Source: Podospora anserina
Taxonomy: Eukaryota
Direction: 5' to 3'
DNA length: 64,000 nt
Assembly: GCA_017654855.1 (NCBI GenBank)
Contig: CM030332.1
Location: 2,480,001 to 2,544,000 of the forward strand
Position 1 is the stretch's first letter. The number at the start of each line of letters is the position of its first letter. The position numbers and the translations under genes were made by a program. This document shows, one piece after another, positions 26,190 to 31,422 of the stretch. Under the pieces are notes generated by a model that saw only the letters and a list, made by a program, of their open reading frames with translations, was not told where the DNA came from and did no database searches.

Positions 26190-27910
26190 CGCTCGTGTCC
26201 CGGCTGCTTCTCGCTTCCCTATAGTTGTACCATTCACAATGCCCCGTAATCCCGCGTTGGGGATCTCTTGGTGTGACGATGCCGAGTTGTTGATGAGTTG
26301 CTGTTGCTCTCTTGGCGTAAAGGGAGGGCCCCGTGTGTTTGTCAGAGAATGAAAGAATCACCTGCCGCTTTCACGAAATCAAAGAACCAAAGGGAAAACG
26401 TGCCAGTTAACGGAGACCCGGCCGAGAGTCGAATCCACCGGGCGCTGTGATGCCCACTAGATGCCGAGTTTATGATGAGATGGTCACACACATCTTCCAT
26501 TCTTGAGAGAAGAGACGCGCAGTAGCGCTCCTGCTGAAAGACGCGATTTCTTGGCTACCTGAGGCAGGTGCACAGACCATACATGCCATTCTAGCGACCC
26601 ACCAACCCTGGAACTCCCCTTAGACGAAGCAACCATGACCATTCATGGATTCATCTACCAGTGAGCCTCACCACTTGCGTCCCTGAGGTTTATCAATACT
26701 CGCGGTGTTTGAAAAAGATCTCACGGGACATTATTTAGTTTTCAAACTTGCCGGGGTATCTCAAGCTTGGGGTATTAAGCCCATAGCCGAGCAGGATAAC
26801 CCTATTCACTGCCAACCTTCAGTTAAGGTGTAATATTGTCGAGAGCCTCTCGGTATTCTAAGATGTTTTAGATACATTATGTGCATGCTTGCTTGTTTTG
26901 CCATCGTTGAAATGAAGCTGAGTGTAAGGCTCTTCTAGTTCTGCTGTTCCATTCAAGACCAGCAACTGAAAAGAAAATATATGACATCTATAGAAAGAGC
27001 CATCATAGGGCCTGGCATTGATTTTGTAACCCTGAGACTCTACTCTACCTTCAGCTACCGCAGCATCATATAAGCTAGCTGGCAGTCAGCTTCAGAAACA
27101 CCCATGAAAGCCTCCTCCAAACATGACAATCCACATCGGGATTAGCGGCCGCCGCGCACCGATGTCAGGGGTCCGTCCCTGGGGATCCGGCAGTTTAGGC
27201 AACGAATTTATCAGAGTTACATACAAAAGGCCCACATGAATCGGTTCCGCAAGGTTCGAAAGCCATTTTGTAAACTTTCGATGAACTCCGACTCTAAATA
27301 TCAAGTCGCAAAGTCAAGGTACCTACCCTACTCTATTCGTAGCGGCTTAACAAATCCCCCTCCAAGTTACCTATATTCTCCCAGTAAACCATCAGCAAAC
27401 CTTGCTTCAAAGCCGAAGCTCTCAGGCTTGCCGTTTAGAAACAGCATTCAACCCGATTGAAACCTCCAATTGGACCGCTCTCTCACCCCGCATCCATATC
27501 TTCCGATGCGTCCTTGTGCTGTGTCCCGCAAAGCACATGCTTCACAACAAATCAGACTTCCATATAAACGAGTGTGGACTGTGCTGGTGGAGAACATATT
27601 GATCCTGACCTTGTTACTCAACAGGTACAGGTAGCATTTCAACAGACCAGATCGGATTGGATGATTAATCCCACCATATTATGGAGTGAGAGGAGGGGCC
27701 GCGCTAAATAGCACGACATCCCACATCATGACATCCTGAACTTTCCGATGTACCTTTGCCTCTGTGACATAACATACCTATATACTGCTGATAGTCTCTC
27801 ATCATCTCTCTACCTCATCTTACAGCTGTGCTTCTAACTACTCCCAAATCCCCTCAAGGCACCCTTCAAGGCTCTATCATTACAATAGCTACCCCTCCCT
27901 CACCGACGTC

Positions 27911-28533
27911 ATGTCTGGCTTCCCCAAACTCATCCCCGCCTTCACGGCCAGAGTAAGCCCCCCTCATCCCTCGCCAGCAATAAAACACCCCCCCTTACAC
28001 CGTATCAACATTCCCCCTACCACCACATATACACCACCCCTCCCCTTCCCTCTCAAACCTCAACTAACCCTCTCCAGATCGCCATAGAGCCCCCCACCGC
28101 CATCTCCCCCCACCTCCTCCATGTCCCCTTCGTCCCCTCCCTCGGCTCCCTAATCTCCGAACCCTCCTACCCCCTCAAGCTCAACGCCCCCATCCTCCAC
28201 GGCGCAGACTACATCACCACCCAACCCGACGGCAAGACCGTCAAGCTCGAGGTCCAGTCCGTAGCCAAGGACGCCTCCACCGGCGCCACCATCCGCTTCA
28301 ACTACACCGGCACCGTCTCCCTCCTCGGCGCCGCCGGCAAGGTCCTCAAGGGCGACCCCTCTGCCGCAACCACCGACTTTGGCGAGGCCTTCATCCACCC
28401 CGTCTTCCAGACCGGTGGTGTCCCCGAGTTGGCCGAGCTGGCGAACAAGGTATATGTTGGGTCTGGGAGGTTCATCTTGGAAGAGGGCAAGCCCGTTATT
28501 GTCGAGTACAAGATTAGTGAGGTTGTTGCCTAG
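27911..28533 (+). CDS. DUF3237/UPF0311-like beta-barrel protein; intron 27953-28077; absent from the ORF track
   Basis: MSGFPKLIPAFTAR, then GTAAGC...CTAAC...CAG, then IAIEPP...HGADYITTQPDGKTVKLEV...FNYTG...TTDFGEAF...FQTG...KVYVGSGRF...VEYKISEV-TAG. Confidence 0.8.
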
Positions 28534-29524
28534 GTGCTGGTTGGATAGTATAGTGGATGATTTGAGTGCGTGTCAAAGGAATGATACAAAATAGTTACAC
28601 AAAACAGATGCATGTCAAAGCAAGCCAAAGTAAAAAGGTCTTAATTGTGCAGTCTCGCTATAATCCCCCGAAATCCCAGATAACAAAAGCAAATGAACCG
28701 CTATCCCTCTCCACAATCCCTCCACCGCCCTCTCATAAGTATTCCCAGACCTCTTGATGCGATATCTCCCAACGCCTTGGTATGCCAGTCGTAAGATGAG
28801 ATCGAAAAAAAGTCAAATGCCGTAAGAGCCGAGAACTCCAATGAAAAAGGCAGAAAGAAAAGGAAAGAAAAGCCAGTCCAGATATTATTTGTGAAGCGCT
28901 CCAGAGGTATCAATGCTATATCAGTGAAAAGACCTAAGTGTCCTTAGACTTGAAGACACCGTCAACTCCAGGCTCAGAGTCGCCATAAACTTCAGCGTCG
29001 AAGCTGTCTTCGTCTTGATAGTCGGAAGGCTTCTCATTGATACTGGGAGACTTCCAGTTGTTCGGTGTCGAACGCAGCAAGTTGTGTCCGGGGATAAAGG
29101 TGTTCAAAGCCACGGGGGCAGCAGGTGGCGTAATTTCAAGAATGAGATCGTCCACGTCCTCCTCCGAAATAACACTACCACCAATGGGGGAGCAAAAGTC
29201 GTGAGAGCCCAAGTCGCTACCGTTGTCCACAGTCGTTGATTTGCGGATATTCGCAATGTCAAAATCGTGGTCATTGTTTTTAAACTTGCGGTTGATACCG
29301 CCCTTCAGCTTGCCATGAATGTCAAAATTCGGAAGCTTAGAGTTATCAAAACCACCCGCAGGCTGAGACTCACCAACTTTACCGATATTTAGGATTAGCT
29401 CGGCTGTAAGTTTGGTGACTTGATCACTCCCGGTATAGTTGTCGTCATTACCCGCCGTAACTGCCTCCTCGCAACTGCCAATTGGTGTACAATCATCCCC
29501 GGGCTTGTTGTCGTGCCTCTGCTT

Positions 29525-30674
29525 CTAGCGGTGACCTTGCAGGGAGAATTGAGCTCTCAAGGCCAAAATCTGCTGCTTCTCGGCTTCGGGAAGCATGTCA
29601 ATCGTCTCTTGAGGTAGCTCCATGACAGCACGCATCAGGGCCTCAGGGTCCTGAGCAGGAGGGGGGGCAGCGACAGGAGGAGGCGCGGCACCAGGGACCG
29701 GAACAACCGGGGCAGCGACGGGAGGGGCGGCATAACCACCGACTGGAGTGCCGGTCGCCGCAGGGACAGGGTAGCCGCCATAGTTGGCGGGGACAGCCGC
29801 AGGAGGCGGGGCAACGCTCACACCAGTGTCGAGGACGGAGTTGATGGCGTCCGGTGACACCAAGCCCATGATCAACAGGGCCTGGAAAACAGCATAACCA
29901 AGCTGGGGAGCTTGGTTCAACAGCTCGGCGCAGCGCGCAGGGTCGTTGGTCGCCAGCGTCTTCATCTGCTGGATGATGTCCAGCAGCTGCGCCGGGGGCA
30001 GGGTGCGAAGCGTTTGCGATATGGCATCGGTGCAGCTCACACCAGGAGGGAGATCTTTGCCCTGGGGCAAAGGAGGGAGCGACGAACCGCCCGCGGGGAC
30101 GACCGGCGCGGCAACGTTGTTACCGTTCGACGGCGCCGAGTAACCGGCAGCAGAAGGGCCCTGGAAAGTATTAGTTTGGATGAATCTCGGATAAAGAAAT
30201 ATCGAGACTTACAGCAGCGTCACGGTCACGACCATCTTCGTCGCTGACCGTTTCATTGCTAAAGTCGACACGCAACTTCCGTCCCATAATCTCATAATCA
30301 TTCAAGTTTCGGACGGCTGAAGAAGCAGAGTCTAAGGGAATAAAAAGTCAGCAAAAGTAACTTTGAGTATGCGGCTCTGCGACATTTCCACGCCACAGGC
30401 CGGTGTCATGTCAGCCTTGAAGAGACTACTTACCGTGGTCAGGGAACTCAGCGAAACCAAAGCCCTTGGGGCGACCAGTCTCTCGATCATAGACGAGGCG
30501 AAAGTTCAGGACGCGACCAGCACCACTGAAGATTTCAGTGATTTGCTCCTCGGTGAGTCCTGCAGATAACGGGTTGTTAGCAATCGACTTTGAAAAGACG
30601 TAATATGATCTCGACGACTTGCCATATGGGATGTTGCCCACGAAGACGACACGAGAGGGCTGTCTGTTTGACAT
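29525..30674 (-). CDS. RNA15: Polyadenylation factor CstF-64/Rna15; introns 30622-30560 (GC-AG), 30433-30332 and 30212-30161
   Basis: RRM SRVVFVGNIPYG|LTEEQ...RLVYDRETGRPKGFGFAEF...SAVRNLNDYEIMGRKLRVDFS. Hinge DAISQTLRTLPPAQLLDIIQQMK...PQLGYAVFQALLIMGLV. C-terminal IDMLPEAEKQQILALRAQ. Confidence 0.93.
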
Positions 30675-31422
30675 CTTTGCGATCAGAGGATGCGCAAAGC
30701 CTGGAGTGAAAAGAGTCGCTTTGAAAATTCGGTGGAAATAAGTAATTGACTGGCAGAGAGTCGATGACTAATTGAAATGGAAGTCGCGGCGTCAATGTTG
30801 TCTCGGCGAAGGAAGGGGAAAAAAGGCTGGTTGCGATGATGCGTTGCGCTTCGATGCGATGCGAAGCAGTAGTTGACAAGTCACCCTGGTCTTGAGAGGC
30901 GCGAAGGGCAAAATCCGTGGAAGGAACAATCAAATTCACCACAATAGGTGTGAACTACCGATAGCAATTGGGACTTGAATTGCTCCTTCTCATCCAATAT
31001 CACACTGGCCGCTAAATTTTTACAAAGACTGTGCAAGACCGTCTGAACTTGCTCACTTTGGCGACAACTGGGCGATGGTGGTGGGGGACAATTGACTGGA
31101 TGTTGATGGAGCAATCGGAAGGTGAGGTTCAATTCTTGGGCTAAAAATGTATGGAGCAAAGTACCCCAGTACCGTGAACCAGCCTGGATTTGGCCAAGCT
31201 TTGAGGCGCGAAGAGCAAGGATGTGAATGTCACGAGAGCACGTGATATGGGTTTGGAGAGAGGTGGCCCATGCGTGCTGGGAACCCTGCTTCCTGCAAGT
31301 GGTGTTCGTCAGCGATGAAGAGAAGCGACTGGTTCCACACCTCGTGAAGCTGCAAGCTCTTTCTCCACAGCGCAAACCAGCTGCCATTCAGCACCAGCCA
31401 CTATACCTAGACAACAGACAAG

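Follow-up and report, generated by a model that had tools for sequence, protein, structure and literature searches.

We show that the RNA15/CstF-64 gene of Podospora anserina is followed, directly behind its UAG stop codon and in the same reading frame, by 196 codons of genuine coding-type sequence, beyond chance, that are carried on transcribed RNA, contain an alternatively spliced intron, are confined to the P. anserina species complex and change rapidly at the amino-acid level. Our preferred account, held tentatively and at somewhat less than even confidence, is that this frame is a young relic coding fragment that now lies in the RNA15 3' UTR. The window analyzed is a 64,000-nucleotide stretch of contig CM030332.1 (assembly GCA_017654855.1), in which RNA15 is encoded on the minus strand; all positions given here are counted from the first letter of that window.

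The coding region of RNA15 (29528..30674, minus strand) is divided into exons at 30674-30623, 30559-30434, 30331-30213 and 30160-29528, and the introns between them (30622-30560, of GC..AG type, 30433-30332 and 30212-30161) are all removed in the RNA contigs of the four runs examined. The spliced translation agrees letter for letter with P0134, a 310-aa database protein from the P. anserina species complex in which Pfam identifies an N-terminal RRM_1 (4.2e-23), CSTF2_hinge (1e-32) and CSTF_C (4e-7); the last exon yields CSTF2_hinge at 6e-33 and CSTF_C at 2.5e-7, both at the far end of the protein. A preliminary description of this DNA had called the gene RNA15/CstF-64 and placed the downstream frame after its conserved C-terminal domain, and both assignments hold, the former through the three domains and the identity with P0134, the latter through the position of CSTF_C at the end of Rna15. 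The canonical UAG (29527-29525, minus strand) stands in the context CGC-UAG-AAG, where the A at 29526 is the candidate for recoding. All 23 aligned orthologues terminate within two alignment columns of this stop and, judged from that alignment, the downstream frame appears dispensable for making Rna15, whose end is that of all orthologues.

Behind the stop, the open frame occupies 28937..29524 on the minus strand and is closed by a TAG at 28936-28934. The coordinates, the peptide and the run of 196 in-frame, Met-free codons up to this TAG are exactly as originally described; a GTG first occurs in frame at codon 99. A first-order Markov model of the window gives 196 codons without a stop a probability of about 4.6e-4, and 17 other long ORFs in the window are followed by 1-48 open codons past their stops. 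Three-base periodicity in the frame reaches a chi2 of 79.5, whereas 5000 simulations of stop-free non-coding sequence average 7.4 and never exceed 29.2, and its codon log-likelihood (0.262 per codon, against -0.044 +/- 0.046 in the simulations) falls within the range of the true coding pieces of the window (0.198 +/- 0.108, n=46), which gives substance to the initial impression that the codons look coding-like. The signal is present along the whole frame: 14 of 3000 simulations match the periodicity of codons 1-50, another 14 of 3000 that of codons 51-72, and 0 of 3000 that of either codons 73-134 or codons 135-196. It also ends with the frame, windows extending past the TAG being negative for coding signal and the 394 nt beyond it having no periodicity (chi2 1.7-2.2). 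A synonymous-only codon score (0.037 for the frame, 0.069 +/- 0.09 for coding sequence and -0.011 +/- 0.075 for off-frame controls) was left unused because coding sequence and off-frame controls are not resolved by it here. That the frame is open by chance within an ordinary 3' UTR is a reading to which long 3' UTRs lend some plausibility, as does the expectation that, among ~10,800 genes, one or a few stops somewhere in a genome will have a long open frame behind them. However, none of the 5000 stop-free simulations attains the observed periodicity or codon score and the adjacent UTR is non-periodic, and on these simulations and the comparison with the flank we reject this reading and give it next to no credence. 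Between the frame and the stop of the convergent plus-strand neighbor (28531-28533) lies a T-rich, non-coding 3' region on the minus strand (28540..28933), which is likely to be where the RNA15 transcript ends.

The frame is covered in 16 RNA-like runs from 9 studies; these runs contain 0.84-0.89 of the words and, none of the listed runs being catalogued as RNA, their RNA nature is taken from spliced introns in the four examined. RNA contigs are unbroken over 28078-30159 in three of these four runs and reach 29982 in the fourth, providing the coverage beyond 28934 that had been proposed as a check; they also cross 28540..28933 and merge with the convergent gene, and such contigs cannot show transcript ends. 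Run X12 reveals a 65-nt intron (GTGAGT...TTGAC...AAG; 29309..29373, minus strand) with a GT..AG joint from 29308 to 29374, at a depth of 59 for the spliced and 85 for the unspliced form (~40% of coverage), and this joint was seen in that one run of the four examined. Contig continuity together with the minus-strand junction at 29374/29308 places the extension on mature mRNA. The preliminary description had considered transcripts that always polyadenylate upstream of about 29300, as well as a splice acceptor near 29399-29377. The former does not agree with the RNA, in which contigs continue past the GT..AG junction at 29308, and no splice to the latter was seen in the four runs, where the intron observed is 29373-29309. 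This intron begins 151 nt downstream of the RNA15 UAG, and its removal shifts the frame, such that a hypothetical read-through tail would have 59 aa instead of 196. The spliced form leaves a 125-codon ORF whose sole start is a TTG, and a database ORF found on 9 contigs (P0004) begins at the TTG just 5' of the junction and runs past it.

Neither an AUG-initiated nor an RNA-supported splice route into the frame was found. Six candidate AUG splice routes all depart from RNA15's own in-frame ATGs and lack a branch-point motif, and the RNA contigs of the four runs contain no joint for any of them. Three sibling models from the species complex (P0007, P0128 and P0131), derived with MAKER according to the available text of their source (PMC10936905), join ...SLQ to VTAGN... 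through a predicted in-frame 75-nt intron (GTCACC...CAG; 29461..29535, minus strand). In such a splice-bridged isoform, the stop would lie inside an alternative intron, either this one or a longer alternative beginning with the GTGAGC donor at 29821, and Rna15 would be fused to the tail unrecoded; enumeration does give in-frame routes from donor 29821/29823. We nevertheless consider this very improbable, given that the joint is absent from all four RNA runs, which show the true introns and also the 65-nt intron, and that the GTCACC donor is poor and the predicted intron has no branch-point motif, whereas all four confirmed introns have one. The same three models also read through the real GC-AG intron 1 as if it were coding, a pattern more in keeping with ab initio prediction than with support from RNA.

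The coding-type signal could also belong to a separate small gene, with the frame as its lineage-specific main exon, transcribed within or behind RNA15 and using a non-AUG start or an exon that escaped our search. The re-annotation of P. anserina reports, in its available text, 1732 novel transcribed regions (PMC9801653), and the run X16 contig has a depth of 40, compared with 5.5-9.3 for the RNA15 5' exons, this depth being a mean over a contig that also spans the neighboring gene. Speaking against such a gene, the frame has zero in-frame ATG codons, the ORFs opened by ATGs in the other reading frames are short (33, 38 and 56 aa), acceptable splice signals link the tail frame to no AUG outside RNA15's own frame, and the 125-codon ORF of the spliced form starts only at TTG; we regard a separate gene as quite improbable. 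As it lacks both an AUG and a supported splice route, the frame could be translated only if the UAG is recoded, whether by A-to-I editing in the sexual stage or by leaky termination.

The encoded peptide matches its earlier characterization as an acidic tail of about 200 aa, with 196 aa, a net charge of -17 and 35 D+E versus 18 K+R. It has no confident predicted fold (AlphaFold2 single-sequence mean pLDDT 32.1) and belongs to no Pfam family, and a search for structured RNA gave no Rfam match at E <= 1. A word-based protein search returned 0 matches among proteins of 107-343 aa and P0001 as the sole match among those of 30-106 aa, and phmmer against 1.84 billion representatives of all lengths returned two, P0001 and P0002. 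P0001 is an ORF call from the same species complex. P0002 is spurious as a relative, being a 3495-aa bacterial TPS/FG-GAP/MBG repeat protein in which the match consists of a single 28-aa stretch, at 36-39% identity, recurring 15 times. The ESM Atlas search gave no usable match. Across 46 usable metagenomic loci of RNA15 orthologues, tblastn found nothing at meaningful E-values with either the tail or the convergent neighbor gene, and the open run behind the RNA15 stop in these loci has a median of 13 and a maximum of 125 codons. The proposed check for a related frame in orthologous 3' regions gave none by phmmer, word-based search or tblastn outside the species complex, to which the tail is confined as an orphan. 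No donor gene or paralogue of the tail was found by phmmer, word-based, ESM Atlas or metagenomic tblastn searches, and a search for insertion signatures yielded short internal repeats only and no flanking duplication. The frame is either a young gene leftover or a tail added only upon stop recoding.

Species of the complex share over 98% identity across genic regions, according to the available text of PMC10936905. Relative to P. pseudocomata, the tail differs at 11 amino acids, which takes at least 12 nucleotide changes, over ~392 non-synonymous sites, or ~3%, and relative to P. pseudoanserina and P. pseudopauciseta it has 5 and 4 changes over 349 sites (1.1-1.4%); Rna15 proper has 1-2 changes in 310 residues. 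Amino-acid changes in the tail therefore seem to accumulate at a roughly neutral rate within the complex, as judged from amino-acid changes, and the tail was not found to be under conservation at the coding level in related species, as a readthrough extension would be. Its end is also variable, the last few codons of the P. pseudocomata model being frame-shifted and two 478-aa sibling models terminating 25 codons sooner. Hence, the notion of a preserved orthologous frame stands in part: inside the complex the frame is mostly open, yet its sequence is drifting rapidly and three species differ in where it ends. Every sibling sequence examined is open for at least 150-171 codons, although sibling frames are detectable only because they are intact, and their intactness thus weighs neither way. 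Some sibling models share the ...GHR end and the others pass the stop via a predicted intron, and therefore no genomic TGG is seen. Three ATG-started ORFs that overlap the tail in other frames are absent from the protein collection.

If the frame is a young relic, a former or captured coding piece of untraceable origin would have lost its own start and ended up behind the RNA15 UAG, where it would be carried as an unusually long RNA15 3' UTR, with its protein sequence free of selection and too young for stops to have accumulated. Any product of UAG recoding would then be incidental. The part likeliest to be active today would be the 65-nt intron, and transcripts from which it has been spliced would be expected to become targets of nonsense-mediated decay. 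Since neither a donor nor a paralogue was found, a point that itself counts against this account, we infer the relic origin, as we do the lack of meaningful translation and the coupling to decay. Other observations also weigh against a relic. A random capture must land in frame, stop-free and behind the UAG, a coincidence that we estimate at ~1 in 10, and the coding signal is already present in the first 50 post-stop codons, as a translated extension predicts. In addition, the drift is compatible with purifying selection as weak as that usually seen in disordered tails (dN/dS ~0.3-0.6), and P. anserina belongs to an order known, from the available text of two reports, for UAG stop-loss editing (PMC5381528, PMC11156358).

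It is possible, if on balance rather unlikely, that ADAT-type machinery edits the UAG to UIG (Trp) on some perithecial RNA15 mRNAs and produces a 507-aa Rna15. The 196-aa acidic disordered tail would then alter Rna15 stability or partner binding, and splicing out the 65-nt intron would leave a tail of 59 aa and make the mRNA prone to decay. Such an isoform would account for a coding signal that starts right behind the UAG and stops at the next stop in a frame that has neither an AUG nor a supported splice entry, and the tail is found on minus-strand transcripts and is covered in the 16 RNA-like runs of the 9 studies. In the available text of the relevant reports, relatives in the order Sordariales edit UAG stops in fruiting bodies (PMC5381528, PMC11156358), UAG is edited more than any other triplet, and stop-loss sites occur in hundreds of Fusarium, Neurospora and Sordaria genes (PMC4817773, PMC11156358, PMC5381528). 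The same literature describes stop-loss tails as tending to be longer than controls, to be disordered and to serve as destabilizing elements (PMC4817773, PMC11156358, PMC5381528, PMC13123824), which is in line with the UAG and the long tail without a confident fold at RNA15. The editing context put forward in the preliminary description is correct in having U at -1 and purines at +1 and +3 (CGC-UAG-AAG), and the -1 U, +1 G, -3 G, +3 A and +4 G all fit the preferences given in the available text of PMC4817773; it is weakened by -2 C and +2 A, which are non-preferred letters in the text available for PMC4817773 and PMC11156358.

Several further findings count against editing of this stop. Stable loops are favored for editing, whereas the local hairpin at the UAG is weak (MFE -9.2 kcal/mol, z = +1.9 versus shuffles), both folded windows are weaker than shuffles (z +1.86 and +2.02), and the A at 29526 lies in a 6-nt loop in two of three minimum-energy folds, a loop missing from both centroid structures. 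The contigs of all four runs show no alternative letter at 29526. Contigs lose minor variants and cannot show editing, most editing levels in the literature lie under 30% (PMC4817773, available text), and the stage of the runs is unstated; consequently, the missing G at this position is uninformative on editing. No contig-derived read-through protein occurs among the 120 matches listed of 261, nor in the 10-member cluster. Published figures, as far as the text of PMC4817773 is available, imply an editing event at only ~9% of the UAG triplets of Fusarium cDNA. The tail is missing outside the complex, changes almost neutrally and has an unstable end, and sibling species keep the stop, with no genomic TGG seen. 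The literature, supplementary tables aside, yielded no list of P. anserina editing sites and nothing that links stop-loss editing with a cleavage stimulation factor. A more elaborate version, a fusion through editing, appears doubtful: a coding fragment would recently have landed in frame behind the UAG, and A-to-I editing of that UAG in fruiting bodies would give an extended Rna15, with the 65-nt intron setting the tail length at 196 or 59 aa and adding a decay tag, and with the dosage or activity of the polyadenylation machinery controlled by stage from the gene's own 3' UTR. A role of the tail in poly(A)-site choice and autoregulation is speculation.

The locus is of interest whichever way the UAG is used. 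If it is edited, RNA15 would carry an unusually long stop-loss tail with full coding statistics on an essential mRNA 3'-end factor, and one young enough to watch domain gain through RNA editing. If it is unedited, the locus would be a clean case of a relic 3' UTR coding fragment that misleads gene predictors, as well as a candidate for control of RNA15 by a 3' UTR intron. The 10-member cluster includes seven named public models, of which three fuse the tail via the weak predicted intron and four mistranslate the GC-AG intron.

The arrangement bears some parallels with stop-loss editing in Sordariomycetes, exemplified by FgDBF2 of Fusarium graminearum (PMC13123824, PMC4817773): both involve a UAG stop in a sexual Sordariomycete and an in-frame extension without a confident fold, consistent with disorder, and the extension exceeds the usual random post-stop length, as the available text reports for edited genes. 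For FgDBF2-type cases, the same text documents editing, an extended protein and a phenotype, with a short tail and a site conserved across Sordariomycetes, whereas RNA15 shows the sequence prerequisites and has a candidate tail of 196 aa, with full coding statistics, in one species complex. Premature-stop correction of the PUK1 type, as presented in the available text of PMC4817773 and PMC11156358, is similar in that coding continues behind a UAG and predictors invent a bridging intron, but there a conserved protein remainder lies behind the stop, while the RNA15 orthologues (23 of 23) end at it and the tail is an orphan. The three sibling RNA15 models invent just such a bridging intron.

Programmed translational readthrough likewise adds a C-terminal extension in the same frame behind a stop. 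In fungi, peroxisomal isoforms are made when a UGA that sits in a leaky context is read through, and UAG followed by A is a good termination context. RNA15, with its UAG-A, differs from such systems in that neither a conserved readthrough motif nor a conserved extension was found. A further parallel concerns introns in 3' UTRs, which in filamentous fungi are reportedly coupled to nonsense-mediated decay, as Zhang and Sachs are said to have described in 2015. Decay sensitivity and a link to the Rna15 level are putative at RNA15. In P. anserina, 344 genes carry 3' UTR introns according to the available text of PMC9801653, and the intron described here resembles the decay-coupled class in being spliced 151 nt past the stop, beyond the ~50 nt required of that class, and in being alternatively used, with both forms present in run X12.

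Directly behind the UAG stop of the window's RNA15/CstF-64 gene, and in frame with it, 196 sense codons run on along the minus strand (29524-28937) before closing at TAG 28936-28934, and this tail is, or was until recently, protein-coding. The preliminary description, which proposed that the UAG is edited A-to-I in fruiting bodies or read through to give an Rna15 with an acidic tail, had the coordinates and peptide right; a scan of the frame bore out the absence of an in-frame ATG, and the tail is indeed acidic (35 D+E vs 18 K+R). The coding assignment follows from open length, periodicity and codon score, all of which exceed chance. Under a first-order Markov model of the window, 196 stop-free codons have a probability of about 4.6e-4, and only 1-48 open codons follow the stops of 17 other long ORFs in the window. 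A accounts for 10% of third and 39% of second codon positions, and the periodicity chi2 is 79.5, whereas 5000 simulated non-coding sequences, stop-free and matched in dinucleotide composition, average 7.4 and never exceed 29.2, which makes a chance open frame hardly conceivable. Periodicity reaches significance in every sub-segment, beginning with the first 50 codons after the UAG, and none is found in the 394 nt beyond the ORF's stop. The earlier impression of coding-like codons also held against the simulations in a codon log-likelihood score, for which long ORFs of the window were the training set: 0.262 per codon for the tail, 0.198 ± 0.108 for true coding pieces, -0.044 ± 0.046 for the simulations and 0.012 ± 0.123 for off-frame ORFs inside genes. 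In 40-codon windows the coding score is always positive for starts between 29500 and 29080, and it turns negative where such a window extends past the ORF's stop.

Two direct repeats within the tail (29423-29445/29492-29514, 23 nt, 78% identity; 29255-29265/29318-29328, 11 nt, exact) encode recurring acidic peptide motifs and hint at a possible internal duplication. Residues about 122-133 (about 29125-29160, minus strand) form an acidic run and then a short hydrophobic stretch, EEDVDD-LILEI, which we take to resemble a SUMO-interaction-type motif. A single-sequence AlphaFold2 prediction (pLDDT 32, no secondary structure) is weak evidence that the tail may be disordered.

The gene itself is identified as RNA15/CstF-64 because P0134, a 310-aa protein of the Podospora anserina species complex that matches its spliced product exactly, residue by residue, carries the Pfam domains RRM_1, CSTF2_hinge and CSTF_C; the nearest named proteins among the matches listed belong to locus "106970"/PODANS_1_6970 of the same complex. 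Its four minus-strand exons (30674-30623, 30559-30434, 30331-30213 and 30160-29528) lead from ATG 30674 to TAG 29527-29525, and introns 1-3 are all removed in the RNA contigs of the four runs examined, including the GC..AG intron 1 (30560-30622, GCAAGT...GCTAAC...CAG; 4/4 runs). Four public models, those of P. anserina S mat+ (319 aa) and three sibling species, read intron 1 as coding, and that of P. comata (300 aa) instead leaves out part of the RRM; the structure is correct in the two 310-aa proteins P0127 and P0134.

Coding-type sequence lying in frame right behind a UAG and lacking its own start would be expected of a recoded extension, and a tail made by stop-loss at the sexual stage is possible, though unlikely. 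The context CGC-UAG-AAG around the candidate A (29526) has the U at -1 and purines at +1 and +3 that had been pointed out, and positions -3 and +4 agree as well; positions -2 and +2 go against published editing preferences. Two of three minimum-energy folds place this A in a small loop that is missing from both centroid structures, and the folds are weaker than those of shuffles. No contig-derived read-through protein occurs among the matches listed (best 120 of 261) or in a 10-member cluster, which, for the assembled runs, counts against majority editing only. Our literature search, supplementary tables aside, found neither a list of editing sites for P. anserina nor a link between stop-loss editing and RNA15/CstF-64.

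Other entries into the frame fare poorly. ATGs in the tail's other frames open ORFs of just 33, 38 and 56 aa, and an independent gene started in some unconventional way is improbable. Enumeration of ATG, donor and acceptor combinations yielded six candidate routes, all of which begin at in-frame methionines of RNA15 itself, lack a branch-point motif and are missing from the RNA contigs. A splice-bridged isoform is drawn in three public models, P. pseudoanserina (478 aa), P. pseudopauciseta (478 aa) and P. pseudocomata (506 aa), which enter the tail through an in-frame 75-nt "intron" (29535-29461, minus strand). This bridge, in contrast to the four confirmed introns, lacks a branch-point motif and starts from a GTCACC donor, and its joint appears in 0/4 RNA runs, making such an isoform improbable. 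The same three models, produced by a MAKER pipeline with SNAP and GeneMark-ES (PMC10936905), translate the true GC-AG intron 1, and we regard the bridge as a construct of the predictors. Even so, these models are independent evidence that gene predictors rate the frame as coding, and they show the stop to exist in those three species.

The tail is transcribed. Sixteen RNA-like runs, drawn from nine studies, contain 0.84-0.89 of the words sampled from 28600-30800, the share to be expected once the three RNA15 introns are spliced out. Contigs run unbroken from the convergent plus-strand gene (27553-28533, stop 28531-28533, with a 125-nt intron at 27953-28077 confirmed in RNA contigs) through the tail into RNA15 in three of four runs, and in the fourth they break inside the last RNA15 exon. 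The neighbour's contig joins RNA15 sequence in X1, X4 and X16 and extends only into the tail, to 29309, in X12, so the 3' ends of the two transcripts overlap or abut somewhere within 28533-29308. Contig letters across the region equal the window's, with no variant seen, in assemblies where strand, ends and minor variants are invisible. Run X12 also reveals an alternatively used 65-nt intron (29373-29309, minus strand, GTGAGT...TTGAC...AAG; depth 59 spliced vs 85 unspliced), whose minus-strand GT..AG joint, 29308->29374, means that RNA15-strand transcripts extend to at least 29308. P0004, a database ORF supported by nine contigs, begins at a TTG just ahead of this junction and runs on past it. 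The intron begins 151 nt behind the stop and its removal disrupts the open frame; any read-through product would then carry a tail of 59 aa. In P. anserina, the median 3' UTR is 212-239 nt and 3' UTR introns are reported in 344 genes (PMC9801653). In X16, the contig spanning the neighbour, the tail and the 3' part of RNA15 has a depth of 40, and the RNA15 5' exons 5.5-9.3 (break at 29982-29996); this could reflect antisense or independent transcription over the tail, or only contig averaging.

The RNA15 stop is ancestral, since 23/23 aligned orthologues terminate at most two columns from the window's last Rna15 residue, among them those of Triangularia setosa (17 differences in about 305 residues) and Apiosordaria backusii (16). 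No Pfam family matches the tail, and phmmer against 1.84 billion representatives gave two matches: P0001, an ORF called automatically within this species complex and covering the last 98 codons, and a bacterial repeat protein, which is spurious. Word-based protein searches returned nothing further and the ESM Atlas nothing. The conserved frame that the preliminary description envisaged did not emerge either, tblastn with the tail as query finding nothing in metagenomic orthologue loci. From 215 metagenomic RNA15 relatives, 80 loci were kept, 64 of them reaching the C-terminus; 52 were distinct and 46 usable behind the stop, with a median of 13 and a maximum of 125 open codons. The maximum belongs to L075 and L079, identical sequences of a distant orthologue (39% identity in the last exon) that ends in TAG. 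Among the 52 distinct loci (L001-L079; three probably mis-parsed, and not phylogenetically independent), TAG ends 29, TGA 12 and TAA 11, and TAG seems over-used at the RNA15 end, though not fixed among the closest relatives.

Within the complex, whose species are >98% identical in genic regions (PMC10936905), the tail differs from the window by 11 amino-acid changes (at least 12 nucleotide changes) over about 392 non-synonymous sites in P. pseudocomata (about 3%), five over 349 in P. pseudoanserina (1.4%) and four over 349 in P. pseudopauciseta (1.1%); Rna15 proper has 1-2 changes in 310 residues in these proteins, and translated intron 1 a similar per-codon rate to the tail (1-2 in 21, tiny numbers). 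The tail's amino-acid-changing rate is about that of total divergence, as expected without purifying selection, although this measure is non-synonymous only and compatible with weak constraint on a disordered tail. The frame also has an unstable end: the last few codons of the P. pseudocomata model lie in a shifted frame, and both 478-aa models stop 25 codons early, probably through a stop at codon 172, which in the window is GAA, one step from a stop. Since single changes create a stop in 2.8% of cases, we estimate, with an assumed indel rate, that a neutral frame would survive only some 1-2% of divergence; if the tail is unconstrained, its loss of constraint must therefore be recent.

Restriction to one young species complex, near-neutral amino-acid change, an unstable end and a frequently used frame-breaking intron all count against a stop-loss tail and in favour of a young relic, a reading we hold tentatively, at somewhat short of even odds. 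A coding fragment no longer under protein-level selection would now serve as the RNA15 3' UTR, translated at most incidentally. Against it, we put at roughly one in ten the chance that a fragment captured at random would land in frame directly behind the UAG. A tail that is rarely translated is unlikely to have gained so strong a coding signal de novo, and so either the relic or the stop-loss view requires a pre-existing coding sequence as its source.

UAG stop-loss editing has ample precedent in Sordariomycetes: 323-403 genes undergo it in F. graminearum, protoperithecia of Sordaria macrospora have 47 sites, and Neurospora has "hundreds"; it favours U at -1 and stable hairpin loops, has a median level of about 15% (<30% at 76% of sites), and the edited genes tend to have longer, disordered, protein-destabilising tails (PMC4817773, PMC5381528, PMC11156358, PMC13123824). 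About 9% of UAG triplets are edited (PMC4817773). The mechanism class, stop-loss editing and the 3' UTR intron, is known; if confirmed, RNA15 would add a new and unusually long stop-loss case, on a core 3'-end-processing factor.
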